A stretch of 64,000 nucleotides of DNA from a virus (IMGVR_UViG_3300013121_000033:32001-96000), one strand, 5' to 3'; positions 49,336-55,671 are shown, counted from the stretch's first letter. Made by a program: numbers and translations. The notes: generated from the sequence alone by a model not told the origin.

Positions 49336-49893
49336 GTGGGTTGGAGTATCGGGTTCGATCAGCGGTGGCGCCGCGACGTCGGGTACGGGGTCCCGGCGAC
49401 GTGTGACTATCCGGGGTGCGAACGGTCGATCGACCGTGGCCTCGCGTTCGTGTGTGGCGGCCGCCCGTACGGCGGCGCGTTCGGGTGCGGCTTGTTCTTC
49501 TGCTCGGACCATCAGTTCGGCGTCGAGTTCCCCCTCGGTGACCTCACCCCGAGCGAGGTCGAACCCGACGGCCTGGTAAGCGTCGACGACGACGGCAACC
49601 CGGTCATCTATGTCGGGCAGGTGTGTGAACGGTGCGCCGACTTCCTTCAAGCTGGCGGCGACCTCGAACCGTTCACCCCGTCACTGGACACCGTCGAGTG
49701 GATGGCGTTCAAGCTGCTCCACCCGTCGTGGCAAGAGTGGCGCGACGGGCACGCCGACGAGGTGTCAGCGATGCGCCAGTCGATCATCGACCGGCTGCCG
49801 TTGATGCCTCCCGACGCGATCTCCCGGATCGTCGCCGAGTTCGAGTTCGACGACATCAACGCCGACGACACCCGGCGTCTCTTGCGCCTCTAG
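49336..49893 (+). CDS. Cys-rich hypothetical phage protein
   Basis: MGWSIG..RDVGYGVPATCDYPGC..IDRGL..CG..GCGLFFC. Confidence 0.65.
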   Translation: MGWSIGFDQRWRRDVGYGVPATCDYPGCERSIDRGLAFVCGGRPYGGAFGCGLFFCSDHQFGVEFPLGDLTPSEVEPDGLVSVDDDGNPVIYVGQVCERCADFLQAGGDLEPFTPSLDTVEWMAFKLLHPSWQEWRDGHADEVSAMRQSIIDRLPLMPPDAISRIVAEFEFDDINADDTRRLLRL

Positions 49894-52800
49894 AACAGGG
49901 ACGGCTGGGCGTCGTCCACTGGCCGCCGTCGTTCCTGCACTCCTGCGTACTGGGGGCCTCCGCGGTAGCCGCGTTCGATCCGCTGGCGGATCAACGGCAG
50001 GTAGTCGCCGGTCTTTTCGACTGCGACCACGTTGAACCCTTCGAGGATCGCAGCCTCGATCGTGGTGCCGGACCCGGCGAACGGCTCAAGGATCACGCCC
50101 GGTCGGGATTCAAGGGGCGTCCCGCAGACACGACACCGCCGCAGTGCGGACAGATGACCGGCTTCCGCGGCTTCGGCAGCCTGTCGTGCTCGCGCTTCGG
50201 GAGCACTTCCAGATTCTCCGGCCGGTTGTCCGCCTTGTCGCCGTTCTTGTGGTGCACGACCTCGTCGGCGGTCAGCATCCGACCCAAGTGCTCCGCCATG
50301 ACCATCCGATGCACCAACACCATCCCGGTCTTCGACGCCATCGGGTGCTCCGGTCGATACACGGCCAGGTAGCCCCGTGGCGTCACGGTTGGCGTGGTCT
50401 TGCGTCGGGAGAGACCCGCCGCCTTTGCGGCACACGCCCGCGAGCAGAACCGTGTCGTCTTCGCTCGCGGCGAGAATGTCGTCCCGCACTTCTCGCACGC
50501 TCGCTCGGGGATTGGCGTGCGGCCCCGCATCGCCTCCGCCGCGCACGTCGGTGAGCAGAACTTCTGACGCGCCCTCCTCGTCGTCGTTCCGCACACGGGA
50601 CACGGGGAGCGGGGAATCACCCGGCTCGCCGCCCGGCACGCGTCGGAGCAATACGTCGCCTCCGCCCGCTTGACTGTCGTCCCGCACAGGGGGCACGTCG
50701 TCAAGGGGTGCTTCCGTGCTCGCCCGGCGGCCTTGTTCCTGCACCGCACCGAACAGACGATCTGTTCCGGTCTGTTGGGTGTGAACGGTTCTTGGCATTC
50801 TCTGCACAGCTTCACGATCAGGCAGCGTAGAACACGCGGGGCAGTGCCATGTGGACGGCGGGGTCACCAACCTGCACAGCCAGCGCATCAACGCGAGCGG
50901 TTTCACCGTCGGATGCCGGGTCCCGTCCTCCCCGACCGGTCGTTCCGACGACGGCGCCTTCGCGACGTACATGAACGCCGGATCGGGTAGCTCCACCTCG
51001 AACGTCGGGAAGAACCGCGACGCCCCGCCCGTGTCGCTGTACTCCGCTCCCGTTCTTCGCATACCGAACCCTTTGCCGCCGTCACGAGTCCATGACGACT
51101 CCTCGGTCCCGCGCCGCTCACTCCCAGGTCGACCGGACACGTCCCCGGACTGTTCGTCGAGCGCGGCGACCGGACACCCCGGCTCGCACTCCCACTCCGG
51201 CACATGCCGCCAACGGTTCCATTCGCTGGCTCCCGACTCAGCGCTCGTCTTGCCACCTTCGTAGCCGACCTTGCCTGGGGTCTTGACGGTGCGGGTGCCG
51301 ACCTGTCGGCACCCCTCGGAATGGGAGAACGTGAAGTAGTCGGACCACCCGGGCGGGATCAACTCAGCCGGGATCGCAACTCCGCGTTCTCCGCCCGGAG
51401 CCGTTCCACCTCGATCAGCAACATCGCGTACTGTCGCTCGATCTCCCGATGACCCACCGAATGCGCCGCCCTCGGGACCACAGTCAGGTTCTCCGGGCGG
51501 TTGTCCGCCTTCTCCCCATTCTCGTGGTGCACCACCTCGTTCGTCGTCAGCGGCCGTCCCAGCTTCGCTGCTGCTACCGCCCGGTGCTCCGCCACGTACC
51601 GCTGTGTCGGCTTGACCATCTGCCTGACGAGCGCTTGCGTCGCCTCGGGGAGCAGGTCGATCATCACGAACCGGTAGCCCCCGCTGTTCGTGTAGGTCCC
51701 GCCCTTCCACTGCGACGATCGTTCCTTCACGTACCGGCCCGTCGCTGCCGCCGACATCTTCGCCCGCGCCTCCGTGGTGTGTGCCTTCCCCAGCCGGTTC
51801 CGGTTCCTTGCGTTCGCTGCCTGTCGGCATCGAGCCGAGCAGTACCGGCGACGACCGTTTCGCACCCACCCCGGAGTCACCTCGAACGGCTCGTTGCACT
51901 GACGACAGTTGATCGTCACCCACTCCGTCTTGCGGACCCCCTTCCGCGAAGCCCCCGTGCACGCCATCGAGCAAAACTTCCGTCTCGCCAGGTCCGACGG
52001 CATCCCCCAAATCGGCTCGCCGCAGTGGGCGCAAGGCTTCGAGATTGCCGTAGTAGGCAACGATCGCATCTTCGACTTCGGCGGGGAGGTCATCGCGGAG
52101 AGCGTAGTAGTCATACCGCAGATGCGACATCACGAAGTTGGCGGGCCACCGGCCCTCGGTGGTCGTGCCGACCGCTTTCGATCCGCCGTCGAACCCCGAC
52201 CCGGCGTTCTGCCTGCCCGCGTACACGGCCCCGTTAGCCGATTCCTTCGGGTCGATCTCACGGGCTGGTCGCCCACCGGCCTCCGTCGGAGCGACCCGTG
52301 TGCCGTCGATGTTGAGTGCGCCGGTGCCGTGTTCGAGCACGTTCGCGGCGAGGGTGCCTGACAGCGGCTTGCGGGCGAGAAGGATGGGCTCATGAGCGGG
52401 CTTCAACGCCGTCCCCCATGACGACCACCGCTCGGCAAGGTCCGAGGTAGGGACCCGCTCGACGCGCTCGCCAACCCATCGTTCACCGTCGCCCTGGTAG
52501 CCAAAATCACCACGGGTGATGGCGACAACCTCGTCGCCCCGCTCCATCGCTTCATCGAACGGCGTGACGTCGAGCCCCATCGCCACCTTGATCCTCGGCC
52601 ACAGCCCCGGCTCGGGCAGGCTGATCCCGTCCTCCCAGTTCCGCACGTTCCCGTCCGACCGACCATCGAAGATCGCCCGCTCAAACTCGGCACGCGATAA
52701 CCCCAGTTCCTCGCGACGCGCCCGCATGAACACGACCGCCTCCCGCGCCGCTAGTGCACCACCCGCACGCTTCGCGATCGCCTTCCCAACATTCATGGAC

Positions 52801-54156
52801 TTCGGGAAGCCTGAGTTGCCGGTGATGAACACCTTGCCGTTGCGGCGAGCAACAAACGCGCCCGAGGGTACGCCGATGCACCACACCTCACCCGTGTAGC
52901 TCTCCCACATCGCAGCGTCCAGGTGCCTGTGCTGTAGCTCAGTCGTGGCCGTCTGGCGGGCGTACACAGCGCCACCCGAGCGACCGGTGGCCGGGTCTCG
53001 CATCCCGACCTTCCCGGCCCGCCCGGTGAGGGCTAGCAAGGTCTGGAACCACACGAGGTCGTCCTCGTGCTTCTGGAAGAACTGCCATGCCCCGAGCGCC
53101 CCTCGCTTCCGTTGCTGGTGGCCGTCGCCGAGTAGCGCCGCTTCGAGCAACGCCTCCTTCTCCGCTGCCGTCATCCGCCACAGCAGTTCGTACGTGGGCC
53201 GCTTGCCGGGGAGGTCCGCCCGCACGCGGTTCGCTAGGTCGCCGGAGAAGAACCACGTCGTTTCGACGTACTCACGGTCGCGGTAGGTGCGGGTCCGGTC
53301 GTATCGCTTGTGGGTGCCGAGACGATCCATGAGAGCAGCAATCTGCGCCACCTTGTCAGAGTTGACACTCGACTGGTAAATCCGCACGCCGGTGCCAGAC
53401 AGATCGAACCCGCCTTCGGTCCATACCCAGCCGAGCAGCGCTGCGTAGTCGGTACCGCCGATGCCGGGGCCGTCGTGTAGCCCCGCGACTGGCAACCGGA
53501 GGCGGCGGGCCGGGCGCAGGTCGGCAGCTTCAGCGACGGTCCACACGTTGTCGTACCACTCGCGGCGAACCCCGTTGGTCATCCGCCGTTGGGAGCGCTG
53601 GTGCCAGACACGGTGGTTCGGGGTGAGCATCTGATCGGTGTCGGCATTGCGGAGCACGGTCATGGGACCGTCCCACGGTGCCCGGTAGGTGCGATCGACT
53701 GCGGCGAGAGTTACCGCTCCCGTCGCTGGGTCCCACTGTGCGACGAGGTCGCCTTCCACAAGGTCGATGCCAGAACGCCAACCCGTCGGGGTCAGCACCT
53801 CGACATCGTCGGTGAGGCACCCGTAGACCCAGTGGATCGAGTCTCTGATCTCGAACCCGGCGTCCTCAACCCCCGAAGCCAACCGGTGATAGCAGCGGGT
53901 CGCGCCGAACGCGACCAGGTGGCCGCCCGGTTTCAGCACACGGAAGCATTCCGCAGCCCACTCGCGGCACCACTCCTCGAACCGGCGCGGCGACTCGAAC
54001 GCATCCCAACTCGAACCCATGAAGCCGCCGCCCGGGAAGGCATAAGGCGGGTCCGTCACGAACTGCGTCGATCGAGCAGTCAGGGAGGGTGGGGAGGATG
54101 TCCTCGACGCGGCCGTGGTGGATCGCGACGCGGTCGTCGGTGTACCAGATGGTCAC
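49890..54156 (-). CDS. Beta-class DNA methyltransferase with an intein, two in-frame insertions and an apparent 1-nt frameshift near the 5' end
   Basis: DAV/VTDPPY, RVLKPGG, GFPKS, LKPAHEPI.LARKP, GRWPAN, HPTVKP, ILEPFAGSGTT; the first 32 codons (54156-54061) are in another frame. Confidence 0.85.
50093..50815 (-). CDS. HNH endonuclease nested out of frame in the methyltransferase
   Basis: Repeated CxxC..CSxxC fingers; VLVHRMVMAEHLGR.L..EVVHHKNGDKADNRPENL. Confidence 0.85.
   Translation of the reverse strand: MKLCRECQEPFTPNRPEQIVCSVRCRNKAAGRARKHPLTTCPLCGTTVKRAEATYCSDACRAASRVIPRSPCPVCGTTTRRARQKFCSPTCAAEAMRGRTPIPERACEKCGTTFSPRAKTTRFCSRACAAKAAGLSRRKTTPTVTPRGYLAVYRPEHPMASKTGMVLVHRMVMAEHLGRMLTADEVVHHKNGDKADNRPENLEVLPKREHDRLPKPRKPVICPHCGGVVSAGRPLNPDRA
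51359..52114 (-). CDS. Second HNH endonuclease nested out of frame in the methyltransferase
   Basis: CxxC/CSxxC fingers; NUMOD3-like GKAHTTEARAKMS; WKGG; EHR..LGRPL..EVVHHENGEKADNRPENL. Start may be a downstream ATG. Confidence 0.85.
   Translation of the reverse strand: MTTTLSAMTSPPKSKMRSLPTTAISKPCAHCGEPIWGMPSDLARRKFCSMACTGASRKGVRKTEWVTINCRQCNEPFEVTPGWVRNGRRRYCSARCRQAANARNRNRLGKAHTTEARAKMSAAATGRYVKERSSQWKGGTYTNSGGYRFVMIDLLPEATQALVRQMVKPTQRYVAEHRAVAAAKLGRPLTTNEVVHHENGEKADNRPENLTVVPRAAHSVGHREIERQYAMLLIEVERLRAENAELRSRLS
52815..53819 (-). mobile_element. Intein (335 aa) with LAGLIDADG-type endonuclease domain
   Basis: YG|CLTDDVEVLT..TPNHRV..LLGWVWTEG..LLGDG..VWCIGVP..RRNGKVFITGN|SGFPKS. Confidence 0.9.
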
Positions 54157-54181
54157 AGGTGGGGGAGCGTAGGCGAAGGGG

Positions 54182-54601
54182 TTACGCGGTGATGTGGTTG
54201 AGGGCGGCGGTGGCGGTCTGGCCGAGGAGTTCGTAGACGGGGTCGGGGTAGTCGGCGGCGTGGCGGTCGTGGTAGTCGGCGAGGGCGTCGATGAACTTGT
54301 TGGGTTGGCGGGTGCGGGCGGTGATCGCGACGGCTTCGGTGACGAACACGAGGTCGGCGAGGTCGGTGATCTCGTGTTCGCTGGTGGCGCCGTCCAGGGC
54401 TGCGGCGGCCCGGTGGAGGATCGCGGTTTCGAGGAGTTCGTGGAGGCTCGTGAAGTGGACGTAGACCGCTCCGGCGGTGAACCCGGCGGTGCGGGCGATG
54501 TCCTGGACGCGTGTCCGGTAGCCCTTCTCTGCGAACAGGTCCGCTGTTGCGGTGATGAGGCGTTCACGGGTGGAGAGTTCGATGTCGATGACGTTGCTCA
54601 T
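54182..54601 (-). CDS. TetR-family HTH protein
   Basis: TRERLITATADLFAEKGY..VQDIARTAGFTAGAVYVHF; upstream TTGACC-18-AAGAAT. Confidence 0.8.
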   Translation of the reverse strand: MSNVIDIELSTRERLITATADLFAEKGYRTRVQDIARTAGFTAGAVYVHFTSLHELLETAILHRAAAALDGATSEHEITDLADLVFVTEAVAITARTRQPNKFIDALADYHDRHAADYPDPVYELLGQTATAALNHITA

Positions 54602-54649
54602 GGTGAACATTCTTGTTCGGATGGGGGTGGTGGGTCAACGGGGCTGCCG

Positions 54650-54988
54650 TCAGCCCGCACCCCGCTCGTACTCGGTCATGGCAGGTCGCGGATGACCAGC
54701 GGCGACGACGTTCAAGTTCGCCGAATCGGTACGGGGGACGCCCTCGACGCGGCCACGGTGCACCGCCCACCCGTCCGGGTCGATCCCGGCGCCGACATGA
54801 ACCGCCCAGTCCCGGGGCCGTGGTTCCTGCGACGCCCGCCGCGATCTCGGCGTCAACGCTGCGTACCGGTAGTTCCCGACCGTGTCCGTCCCGGTCCGGT
54901 CATTCCAGATGACCAGCAGCGCCGTCACCCCACCCCACGCCGACCGCGGGTTCCCACCCGGGTGCAGTTCAACCTCCACGACGATCAC
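54650..54988 (-). CDS. Hypothetical protein
   Basis: GTGA coupling to the Dam-like gene; VEVELHPGG..WND.TGT..GNY. Confidence 0.5.
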   Translation of the reverse strand: MIVVEVELHPGGNPRSAWGGVTALLVIWNDRTGTDTVGNYRYAALTPRSRRASQEPRPRDWAVHVGAGIDPDGWAVHRGRVEGVPRTDSANLNVVAAGHPRPAMTEYERGAG

Positions 54989-55671
54989 AGCAGCGTCCCA
55001 GGTTCGTTGGTCCACCACACTTCGCTGTAAGAACGATGGCCCCCGTCGTTCATTGCGAACTGTCCGTTCCACGGCATCCAATCGGCTCCCTTCTGCTCGC
55101 ACACGATGACTTGCCCGCGTCGGGTCATCGACCATGACGCAAGGGCCTGGAAGTTGATGTTCGTATTGTCGTAGCGGTAGCGACCTCCCCGAGTCCGGTC
55201 CGGGCGTCCGGCTTGGTATTGATAAGGCGGGTCGATAAACCAGGTAGCTTCGATGTCGGGAGCGTCGGCGTAGTCGCCATGACGTACGTCGAAGTGGCGG
55301 CACTCGTCCACGACAGCGGCGATGCGTTGCACCATTGGCGTGAACCGCTGCGCCATCCGTTCCGTGACTTGGAACTCGGACGGAGTGTCGCGAGTTGTTC
55401 GGCCGGAAGCAAACGCTACAAGCAGGTCGTCGCAAGACGCTCCAACCGTGGGAGGTTTCATTGCTCGAATTGCGTGGGCAGGGGTAGCAAGCAGGCGATG
55501 CCACAGTTCTACGACTCGTTCGTCGCGTTCTACCAGGATCACTGTCGGTGAGCGACGGTGAAGCACCGCGTACGCGGCGGACCCGGCAAAGGGTTCCACG
55601 ACTGCCGCACAGCGCGGGGCGGGATAGCGGCGAGCAGCTAGAAACTTGGAGCCGTAATACTTGAACATCAC
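54985..55671 (-). CDS. Dam-like (D12/alpha class) DNA adenine methyltransferase, compact
   Basis: YYGSK, VEPFAGSA, FIDPPY. Confidence 0.85.
   Translation of the reverse strand: MMFKYYGSKFLAARRYPAPRCAAVVEPFAGSAAYAVLHRRSPTVILVERDERVVELWHRLLATPAHAIRAMKPPTVGASCDDLLVAFASGRTTRDTPSEFQVTERMAQRFTPMVQRIAAVVDECRHFDVRHGDYADAPDIEATWFIDPPYQYQAGRPDRTRGGRYRYDNTNINFQALASWSMTRRGQVIVCEQKGADWMPWNGQFAMNDGGHRSYSEVWWTNEPGTLL

Follow-up and report, generated by a model that had tools for sequence, protein, structure and literature searches.

The usual view is that a homing endonuclease gene can persist within an essential or conserved gene only when it is taken out again by an intron or an intein. A DNA methyltransferase gene of a virus raises the question of how such genes may otherwise be housed in a conserved coding sequence. 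The gene lies on the minus strand of a stretch of 64,000 nucleotides (nt) (IMGVR_UViG_3300013121_000033:32001-96000), referred to here as the window, in whose coordinates positions are given. An initial annotation described it as invaded three times, by an intein and by two in-frame insertions which each hide an HNH endonuclease gene in another frame. The analysis reported here makes it probable that the methylase has been invaded by three selfish elements, a conventional LAGLIDADG intein and two non-splicing homing cassettes with hidden HNH genes, the latter being read through as loops of the methylase. The open host frame across both inserts is maintained by selection, and the same arrangement recurs at the same sites in related methylases.

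Architecture of the invaded methylase gene

The virus genome record containing the window comprises 225,159 bp with a GC content of 68%. The methylase frame had been said to stay open for 1389 codons, and an open reading frame (ORF) of this length is indeed found at 54059..49890. It matches PF01555 (N6_N4_Mtase) at residues 1-79 with an E-value of 3.4e-18, and again over the last 85 residues. The product is assigned on sequence grounds to the beta-class N6/N4 DNA methyltransferases of the ShiLan gp65/Dorothy gp75 family, and it aligns with 52-54% identity to ShiLan gp65 and BlueCrab gp67. Beta-class motifs IV, X and I are all detected and both ends of PF01555 are matched, with 32 N-terminal codons lying in another frame. 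A megablast search against phage records returned a sole match, of 115 nt, to cluster E/F mycobacteriophage methylases.

The two inserts lie within this ORF (Table 1). Their limits, estimated in the initial annotation as about 51321-52121 (insert 2) and 50103-50855 (insert 1), proved exact. Alignment with insert-free homologues, which had been suggested as a check, restores the junctions RWPxNxxxSH|(A/S)EGC and LVTPP|GxxLDPF respectively. Both lengths, 801 and 753 nt, are divisible by three, and there are 0 stops in the methylase frame, termed here the host frame. Each insert carries on the same strand, as had been claimed, a complete zinc-finger HNH gene in a shifted frame, such that a host methylase codon is made up of the third, first and second positions of HNH codons ([p3,p1,p2]). 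The catalytic residues (HH..N..DN..NL..H) and the zinc-finger cysteines are conserved in both HNH1 and HNH2. The HNH2 frame is conserved among orthologues from about Met16 (ATG 52069), Met8 being encoded by ATG 52093. The TGA stop codon of HNH1 overlaps the G-V-I codons of motif I, and the final 38 nt of insert 2 lie beyond the HNH2 stop. Sequence outside conserved HNH coding thus amounts to just 7-52 nt on the 5' side and 0-38 nt on the 3' side. The junction codons are repeated, as CAT...CAT at insert 2 and CCG...CCG at insert 1, and the last 11 codons of insert 2 form a degenerate, 67%-identical copy of the preceding GRWPANFVMSH.

The third element, the intein, is confirmed by splice-site residues, profile matches and its presence or absence at a conserved site. 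It shows 72% identity to the published ShiLan gp65 intein and 62% to that of BlueCrab gp67, and occupies the same site, YG|SGFPKS, across which intein-free homologues read YGSGFPKS. The expected sequence blocks (CLTDD..., TPNH and ITGN|S) are present, the penultimate residue being Gly rather than His. Searches with the single sequence were weak, Pfam giving only LAGLIDADG_3 at E 0.083 and phmmer against the PDB nothing useful. A profile built from four inteins matched solved inteins, namely the AceL NrdHF intein (6zgq, E 5.5e-5) and PI-MtuI (E 0.012).

Table 1. Coordinates of features of the methylase gene, its intein, its two inserts and the associated TACGCT hexamers
Feature	Position	Strand	Evidence or remark
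TACGCT, -10-like hexamer, 9 nt before methyltransferase GTG 54156	54166..54171	-	
Methyltransferase N-terminus, GTG start, VTIWYTDDRVAIHHGRVEDILPTLPDCSIDAV	54061..54156	-	Homologous to ShiLan MTPYYQDDEVTLYHGDC...SVDAV; frame differs from remaining gene
N-extein, motif IV, DPPY at 54053..54042; opens the 1389-codon ORF	53820..54059	-	PF01555 and alignment
LAGLIDADG intein, 335 residues, Cys1 ... TPNH ... two LAGLIDADG-like motifs ... ITGN, then S	52815..53819	-	Identity to published inteins; profile
XRE/C-protein-like helix-turn-helix domain, in frame within C-extein	52539..52760	-	PF13560 E 0.0015, below curated cutoff
Insert 2, 801 nt, 267 codons, between RWPANFVMSH and SEGC	51321..52121	-	Site empty in P0002
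Insert 2 N-terminal host-frame module, LRYDYYALRDDLPAEVEDAIVAYYG	52041..52121	-	First ~54 nt conserved in host frame, not HNH frame
TACGCT, -10-like hexamer, 7 nt before HNH2 ATG 52093	52101..52106	-	
HNH2 ORF, +1 frame, 251 residues	51359..52114	-	PF13392 (HNH_3) E 8.7e-10
Insert 2 C-terminal host-frame module, …IPPGWSDYFTFSH	51321..51383	-	IPxGWxxxF conserved in nine loci
Insert 1, 753 nt, 251 codons, flanked by motif X (HPTVKPLALMRWLCRLVTPP) and motif I (PGVILEPFAGSGTT)	50103..50855	-	Spacer comparison with relatives
Insert 1 host-frame CxxC, STWHCPACST, upstream of HNH1 start	50826..50855	-	All 12 occupied sites begin with CxxC
TACGCT, -10-like hexamer, 8 nt before HNH1 GTG	50824..50829	-	
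HNH1 ORF, +1 frame, GTG start, 240 residues	50093..50815	-	PF13392 (HNH_3) E 2.7e-14
Insert 1 host-frame CxxCG, ALRRCRVCGTPLESR, overlapping variable HNH1 tail	50103..50147	-	Host frame conserved, HNH tail not
C-terminal methyltransferase segment, motifs I-III and stop codon	49890..50102	-	PF01555 profile positions 183-219; AlphaFold2 pLDDT 95

Maintenance of the host frame and recurrence in relatives

An open frame opposite a coding sequence may arise as a by-product of high GC content, in which case the methylase would merely have been broken by two free-standing HNH genes. Of the alternative frames of a GC-rich gene, the one in question, [p3,p1,p2], is the least prone to stops, and its openness was therefore tested against the effect of GC. 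In this genome the corresponding frame of coding-like ORFs holds 1.03% stops per codon, and windows of 251 and 267 codons are open in only 13% and 12% of cases. When synonymous codons were resampled from genome usage, the probability of an open host frame was 0.038 for insert 1 and 0.033 for insert 2; when they were permuted within each ORF, the values were 0.038 and 0.002. The third frame of the HNH1 and HNH2 ORFs contains 7 and 12 stops respectively. HNH codons ending in T are absent (0/99) where the next codon begins with AA, AG or GA, the context which risks a host-frame stop, as against 34/390 elsewhere (Fisher P 3.4e-4). The joint probability of chance openness, including that of two in-frame lengths, is well under 1%, and the same overprinted arrangement is found in four relatives with a GC content of only 0.42-0.51 (L088, L066, L225 and L147). 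The host frame is thus stop-free through selection and not through GC content, and a chance origin is the least credible of the explanations considered here.

The behaviour of the inserts in other genomes was followed by searches at the DNA level with HNH alignments. The resulting counts are unbiased with respect to host-frame continuity because gene calls were not used. Wherever an HNH gene lies just ahead of motif I the host frame is continuous (6/6 loci), as it is wherever an HNH2-type gene lies just after GRWPxN (7/7 loci, GC 0.46-0.70). Stops in the methylase frame of homologous inserts, which would have spoken against the initial annotation, were accordingly found in none of the 13 inserts at the two sites. 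Among the other HNH relatives the equivalent frame is open in only 8 of 153, and five of these eight are further PF01555 methylases with hidden HNH genes at additional sites.

A HMMER search with the C-extein gave 17,402 matches. Motifs X and I could both be placed in 111 representatives, of which 99 have a spacer of 10-19 residues between them and 12 have inserts there. Cassettes of the insert 1 type occupy the same motif X/motif I junction in L006, L010, L012, L066 (GC 0.51) and L090, and HNH1 is 49-53% identical to the hidden HNHs at this site in L006, L010, L012 and L090. Inserts of the insert 2 type are present at the same site in nine representative clusters, with at least 16 other methylases occupied. 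Eight of the nine representative loci were confirmed at the DNA level to carry orthologous +1-frame HNHs of 233-268 residues. HNH2 is 43-61% identical to eight orthologues, with all zinc-finger cysteines and HNH residues invariant. In a comparison with the flanking methylase (33-50% identity), the HNH2 orthologues, at 42-60%, are at least as conserved. In the closest relative, P0002 (67% identical), the insert 2 site is empty and reads NFVLSH|AEGCVQVG. Both elements are therefore site-specific and patchily distributed, as expected of homing elements.

The occurrence of two inserts and an intein in one gene had been regarded as unusual. This was an overstatement, since multiple invasion is common in the methylase family, with P0012, P0019/L140 and L099 providing similar cases. 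The locus of P0012 (L137) carries a cassette of the insert 2 type together with a second intein inside motif X (NNHP|CLHPDS...SHN|TKKPLALMEWL). At L140:1075-1968 and in L175, a LAGLIDADG domain is missing from the intein which occupies the YG|SGFPKS site. A 297-residue HNH ORF lies within this intein in another frame, and the intein endonuclease is therefore itself overprinted. In L099, from Kribbella, an insert of the ShiLan type with a broken HNH frame is accompanied by a second in-frame insert. Further hidden-HNH sites are found before ALKP, bracketed by CxC...CxxCG (L170 and L276), between GTGxxNID and GRWP (L153), and after YGSGF (L086).

Host-frame end modules and the question of splicing

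The inserts had been described as junk in the methylase frame. This does not apply throughout, as the first and last 10-25 codons are conserved in that frame. In dual-frame BLOSUM profiles of either insert, the host frame is the better conserved of the two at the 5' and 3' ends, and the HNH frame in the centre. At the start of insert 2-type elements, the first ~54 nt show conservation only in the host frame (h-x-x-x-W-Y-x-L-R-x-D-x-P-x-E...YYG), and the same is true of the last ~57 nt (R-L-E-V...IPxGWxxxF). In elements of the insert 1 type, all 12 occupied sites have a CxxC a few residues after LVTPP and a CxxCG ~10 residues before VLDPF. In the window the two halves of this zinc ribbon are CPAC and CRVCG, and CxxC...CxxCG also brackets the inserts of L006, L010, L012 and L090. 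Two relatives possess minis of insert 1 which have no HNH gene, of ~100 residues in P0002 and ~50 residues in P0135, and in both the ribbon is kept in frame. In-frame shadows of HNH-coding sequence remain in them, which identifies the minis as deletion derivatives.

Structure prediction with AlphaFold2 (AF2) on the C-extein, using an alignment of 83 sequences, gives a similar division (residue numbers refer to P0001, the C-extein). The start of insert 2 (residues 232-258) is modelled as a strand and a helix with a predicted local distance difference test score (pLDDT) of 72-93, and its end (residues 478-498) as strands with a pLDDT of 92. The centre (residues 292-474) scores about 30. For insert 1, the pLDDT is 70 at the CPAC end, about 30 for residues 665-869 and 58-82 for residues 871-904. 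The insert ends are thus modelled confidently and the centres are predicted to be disordered; the centres consist of 16-23% Gly with only 5-8% ILMFWY. Across the 251-residue insert 1, motif X and motifs I-III superpose together on CcrM (6pbd; Z 7.1, root-mean-square deviation (rmsd) 2.1, 85 residues, 34% identity) and on M.BceJIV (8urk; rmsd 1.5). Insert 1 therefore sits in a loop of the methylase fold.

HNH ORFs are common in phage group I introns. This background, together with the repeated junction codons, makes it conceivable that a degenerate group I intron, or an unknown kind of intron with an HNH ORF, takes the inserts out of the mRNA. No intron family was matched when 49700-54400 was scanned with Rfam at E<=10, and three sub-threshold matches were unrelated to introns; almost no non-ORF sequence is left to form a ribozyme core. 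Moreover, lengths which are always multiples of three, selection against stops and host-frame conservation of the ends would be needless if the insert were spliced out, and minis exist in frame. Removal from the mRNA is consequently highly improbable. Excision from the protein by a new intein-like mechanism, which might be suggested by the Ser with which insert 1 starts and the Ser which follows insert 2, is if anything more doubtful still. The ends of the inserts (L...H|S in insert 2 and S...R|P in insert 1) lack the C/S/T...N pattern of inteins, and neither insert terminates in Asn (…ESR|P and …FSH|S). Among the orthologues, no nucleophile is conserved downstream of the insert (…FVAFGGC, …HCATDEC). 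Pfam detected no intein family in the 1389-residue protein which holds both inserts, and AF2 predicts short end modules around a disordered centre instead of a compact fold. The initial annotation had likewise seen neither intein ends nor obvious intron structure in the inserts, and the Rfam, Pfam and terminal-residue results agree with it, although a missing match does not amount to proof. Its proposal that the homing elements avoid disrupting the host gene by overprinting rather than splicing is supported by the open frame and the lack of a splicing signature; overprinting is not the whole story, however, as the elements also bring end modules of their own in the host frame.

Apart from its homing elements, the C-extein contains a helix-turn-helix domain inserted between SKAIAKRAGG and WGTALKP, which is absent from ShiLan and BlueCrab. 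It is modelled with a pLDDT of 89-98 and resembles the restriction-modification controller C.AhdI (1y7y; Z 9.1, rmsd 2.0, 65 residues). P0004, P0131 and P0069 appear to carry the same domain.

Function, precedents and significance

The non-splicing, hidden-HNH reading of the two inserts would entail the following mechanism. Each cassette would consist of a 5' host-frame module, an HNH_3 ORF with zinc-ribbon DNA-binding repeats in the +1 frame, and a 3' host-frame module. The ribosome would read the methylase straight through the insert, the centre of which would become a stop-free, disordered loop of ~180-205 residues rich in Gly, Arg, Asp and Ala. The end modules may fold together, holding the ends of the loop close so that the methylase fold could close around it and the enzyme remain active. 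This clasp would be formed by the split zinc ribbon CPAC...CRVCG in insert 1 and by the strand-helix start and beta-strand end in insert 2. Internal initiation would yield the HNH as a separate product. In this virus it may start on leaderless or short-leader transcripts via TACGCT, and in relatives often from an embedded Shine-Dalgarno sequence. It would then cut insert-free alleles at conserved methylase motifs, whereupon repair would copy the cassette in.

Candidate start signals of both kinds are present. TACGCT has only 12 occurrences on both strands of the 225-kb genome, and besides the three copies in Table 1 a fourth, outside the window at genome position C1:111113 (-), lies 6 nt before the ATG of a 143-codon ORF which directly follows an upstream stop. 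A scan for the sigma-70 consensus found no promoter inside the methylase gene, the TACGCT boxes matching only the -10 element. In this virus, leaderless genes may use TACGCT as their -10 element, and the boxes are suggestive, if held loosely, of leaderless or short-leader transcripts. A box of the form TANNNT lies 6-8 nt before the start in both inserts of the window, in L012 (TAGAAT) and in L066 (TATCAT). In L078, L086, L006 and L010, and likewise in ShiLan, the host frame contains a strong Shine-Dalgarno sequence of the AGGAGG type, located 4-7 nt ahead of the start codon. In the ShiLan hidden HNH (L001:3480-3500), GGAGG precedes by 4 nt the second in-frame GTG (codon 28), just ahead of the first zinc finger; Arsenault 2025 reported no detectable ribosome-binding site for this gene (PMC11855218). 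Two other translational devices were considered. The HNH1 stop overlaps a host-frame GTG (GTGA), as does that of L010 (TTGA), which could couple translation of the motif I fragment to that of the HNH; coupling was rejected as a general feature because L006, L012 and L090 lack the overlap. A ribosome bypassing the insert from one repeated CAT or CCG junction codon to the other would have to skip 750-800 nt, which was considered implausible.

Upstream of the inserts, the methylase reading frame is itself disturbed. The N-terminus VTIWYTDD...SIDAV is out of frame with VTDPPY (from 54059) owing to an extra base at 54060 (GAC GCA GTT C GTG ACG GAC), two codons ahead of DPPY. The initial annotation had given 54156 as the upper coordinate of the gene; a start there is in the wrong frame for the 1389-codon ORF, and the interval spans this shift. 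Programmed +1 frameshifting at GTT-C-GTG was considered, and a known slippery or hungry-codon context is absent there. The base reflects either an error of assembly or a recent mutation which inactivates the gene. The latter would leave the methyltransferase dead or dying, with the open frames as relics of past selection and the cassettes as passengers. In keeping with this, 32 conserved N-terminal codons are off frame and no alternative start was found which restores them to the 1389-codon frame. Everything downstream is nonetheless intact over 1389 codons, from motif IV and the blocks of the intein to the two HNH ORFs and motifs X and I, and a single-base assembly error would account for the shift equally well. 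A dead or dying gene is possible, though we consider it unlikely; it is compatible with the nature of the elements and conflicts only with their present function. On the same strand upstream of the methylase lie an ORF for a TetR-like N-terminus (54182-54610), separated by 26 nt from the start of the methylase, and a second, Dam-like methyltransferase (FAGSAAY ... DPPY; 54985-55671).

Several points weigh against read-through of active cassettes in an active methylase. With the 1-nt insertion at 54060 upstream of DPPY, this copy may not yield an active enzyme. Split arrangements without read-through also occur in the family: the methylase on the P0002 contig is called as genes of 148 and 476 residues flanking a PF01844 HNH, the split falling at about the ShiLan site, and in ShiLan itself a separate ORF encodes motif I. 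Orthologous inserts do not conserve the TACGCT box, L140 having TATGCC (derived by hand from translations), which makes the promoter idea weak. The confidence of AF2 at the insert ends may partly reflect alignment depth. Finally, within-ORF permutation gave P <0.02 in 7 of 10 related embedded HNH ORFs, the third frame of which holds 6-22 stops, but these tests include loci chosen for their open frame, the unbiased counts being the 13/13 given above.

The initial annotation mentioned one similar element reported from actinophage methylases, and this precedent is real. The ShiLan domain was described in the mycobacteriophage methylase gp65 by Gosselin 2023 (PMC9957025), and its hidden HNH, together with a second case in Pacc40, by Arsenault 2025 (PMC11855218). 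Both inserts of the window share its defining features. They occur sporadically at a conserved site, contain no stop in the host frame, enclose a complete HNH gene in a different frame and carry no detectable signature of an intron or intein. The resemblance to ShiLan extends to the methylase family, the intein site, the in-frame and stop-free character of a sporadic insert with an out-of-frame zinc-finger HNH, and the presence at one insert end, 5' in ShiLan and 3' in insert 2, of 11 codons which copy the flanking target in degenerate form. Neither insert is a ShiLan domain proper, the site after WGTALKP being uninterrupted in the window (WGTALKPAHEPILLARKPL) and the HNHs being 31-40% identical to that of ShiLan over partial length. 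The inserts differ further in occupying other sites, in having the HNH in the +1 frame where the ShiLan host frame is shifted the other way, and in the host-frame split zinc ribbon which brackets insert 1, a feature undescribed in PMC9957025 and PMC11855218. Pacc40 gp60 is comparable in having an out-of-frame HNH-like ORF within an in-frame insert of an intein-bearing phage methylase (Arsenault 2025); it belongs, however, to a helicase-methylase fusion family, with an endonuclease of more AP2/HNH-like character.

ShiLan gp65 ends before motif X, and the downstream ORF L001:4655-4954 (gp67) encodes VKPLTLMRWLVRLVTPPNGVVLDPFAGSGTT..., with motifs X and I-III. ShiLan and like mycobacteriophage methylases are split genes. 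The rationale for annotating Dorothy_76 and its homologues, which are short ORFs, as 'methylase' was not evident to the authors of the 2023 paper (PMC9957025); a separate ORF with motifs X and I-III may explain the label.

Parallels can also be drawn with the classical homing elements. Like inteins, the HNH inserts are homing elements in conserved motifs, and the in-frame minis of P0002 and P0135 are the counterpart of the mini-inteins left after endonuclease loss. Unlike inteins, they have no Hint fold or splicing residues, and the insert apparently stays in the mature protein. As with group I introns and free-standing HNH genes, an HNH targets a conserved coding site, and split versions of the same methylase exist (ShiLan and the P0002 contig); the inserts differ in having no ribozyme and a continuous host frame which is selected to stay so.

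In a full-text literature search for hidden or out-of-frame HNH genes, only Arsenault 2025 used those phrases. The finding is of a known, recently described kind of hidden HNH at two other sites and does not represent a new category. Not found in PMC9957025 or PMC11855218 were the two sites themselves, statistics on stop avoidance, same-site recurrence across GC contents, the end modules with their split zinc ribbon, the minis and the embedded Shine-Dalgarno sites. A broader proposal, on which we are evenly divided, is that hidden-HNH cassettes constitute a third general way, besides introns and inteins, of lodging a homing endonuclease gene in a conserved coding site. Such cassettes would bring their own host-frame clasp, come under dual-frame selection and leave the clasp behind as a mini once the endonuclease has decayed, with several site-specific families on one methylase superfamily and one variant inside an intein.

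The 2025 report on ShiLan put forward a non-splicing alternative from one insertion site, without statistics or structural rationale (PMC11855218). With the present locus and those related to it, the hidden HNHs gain at least two further site-specific families, together with quantitative evidence, low-GC genomes included, that the host frame is kept by selection. The host-frame end modules, among them the split zinc ribbon, provide a testable reason why an insert of 250 residues might be tolerated, and the HNH-less minis parallel mini-inteins. There is a consequence for annotation as well, as gene callers report such loci as single long 'methyltransferases' and overlook the endonucleases embedded within them.

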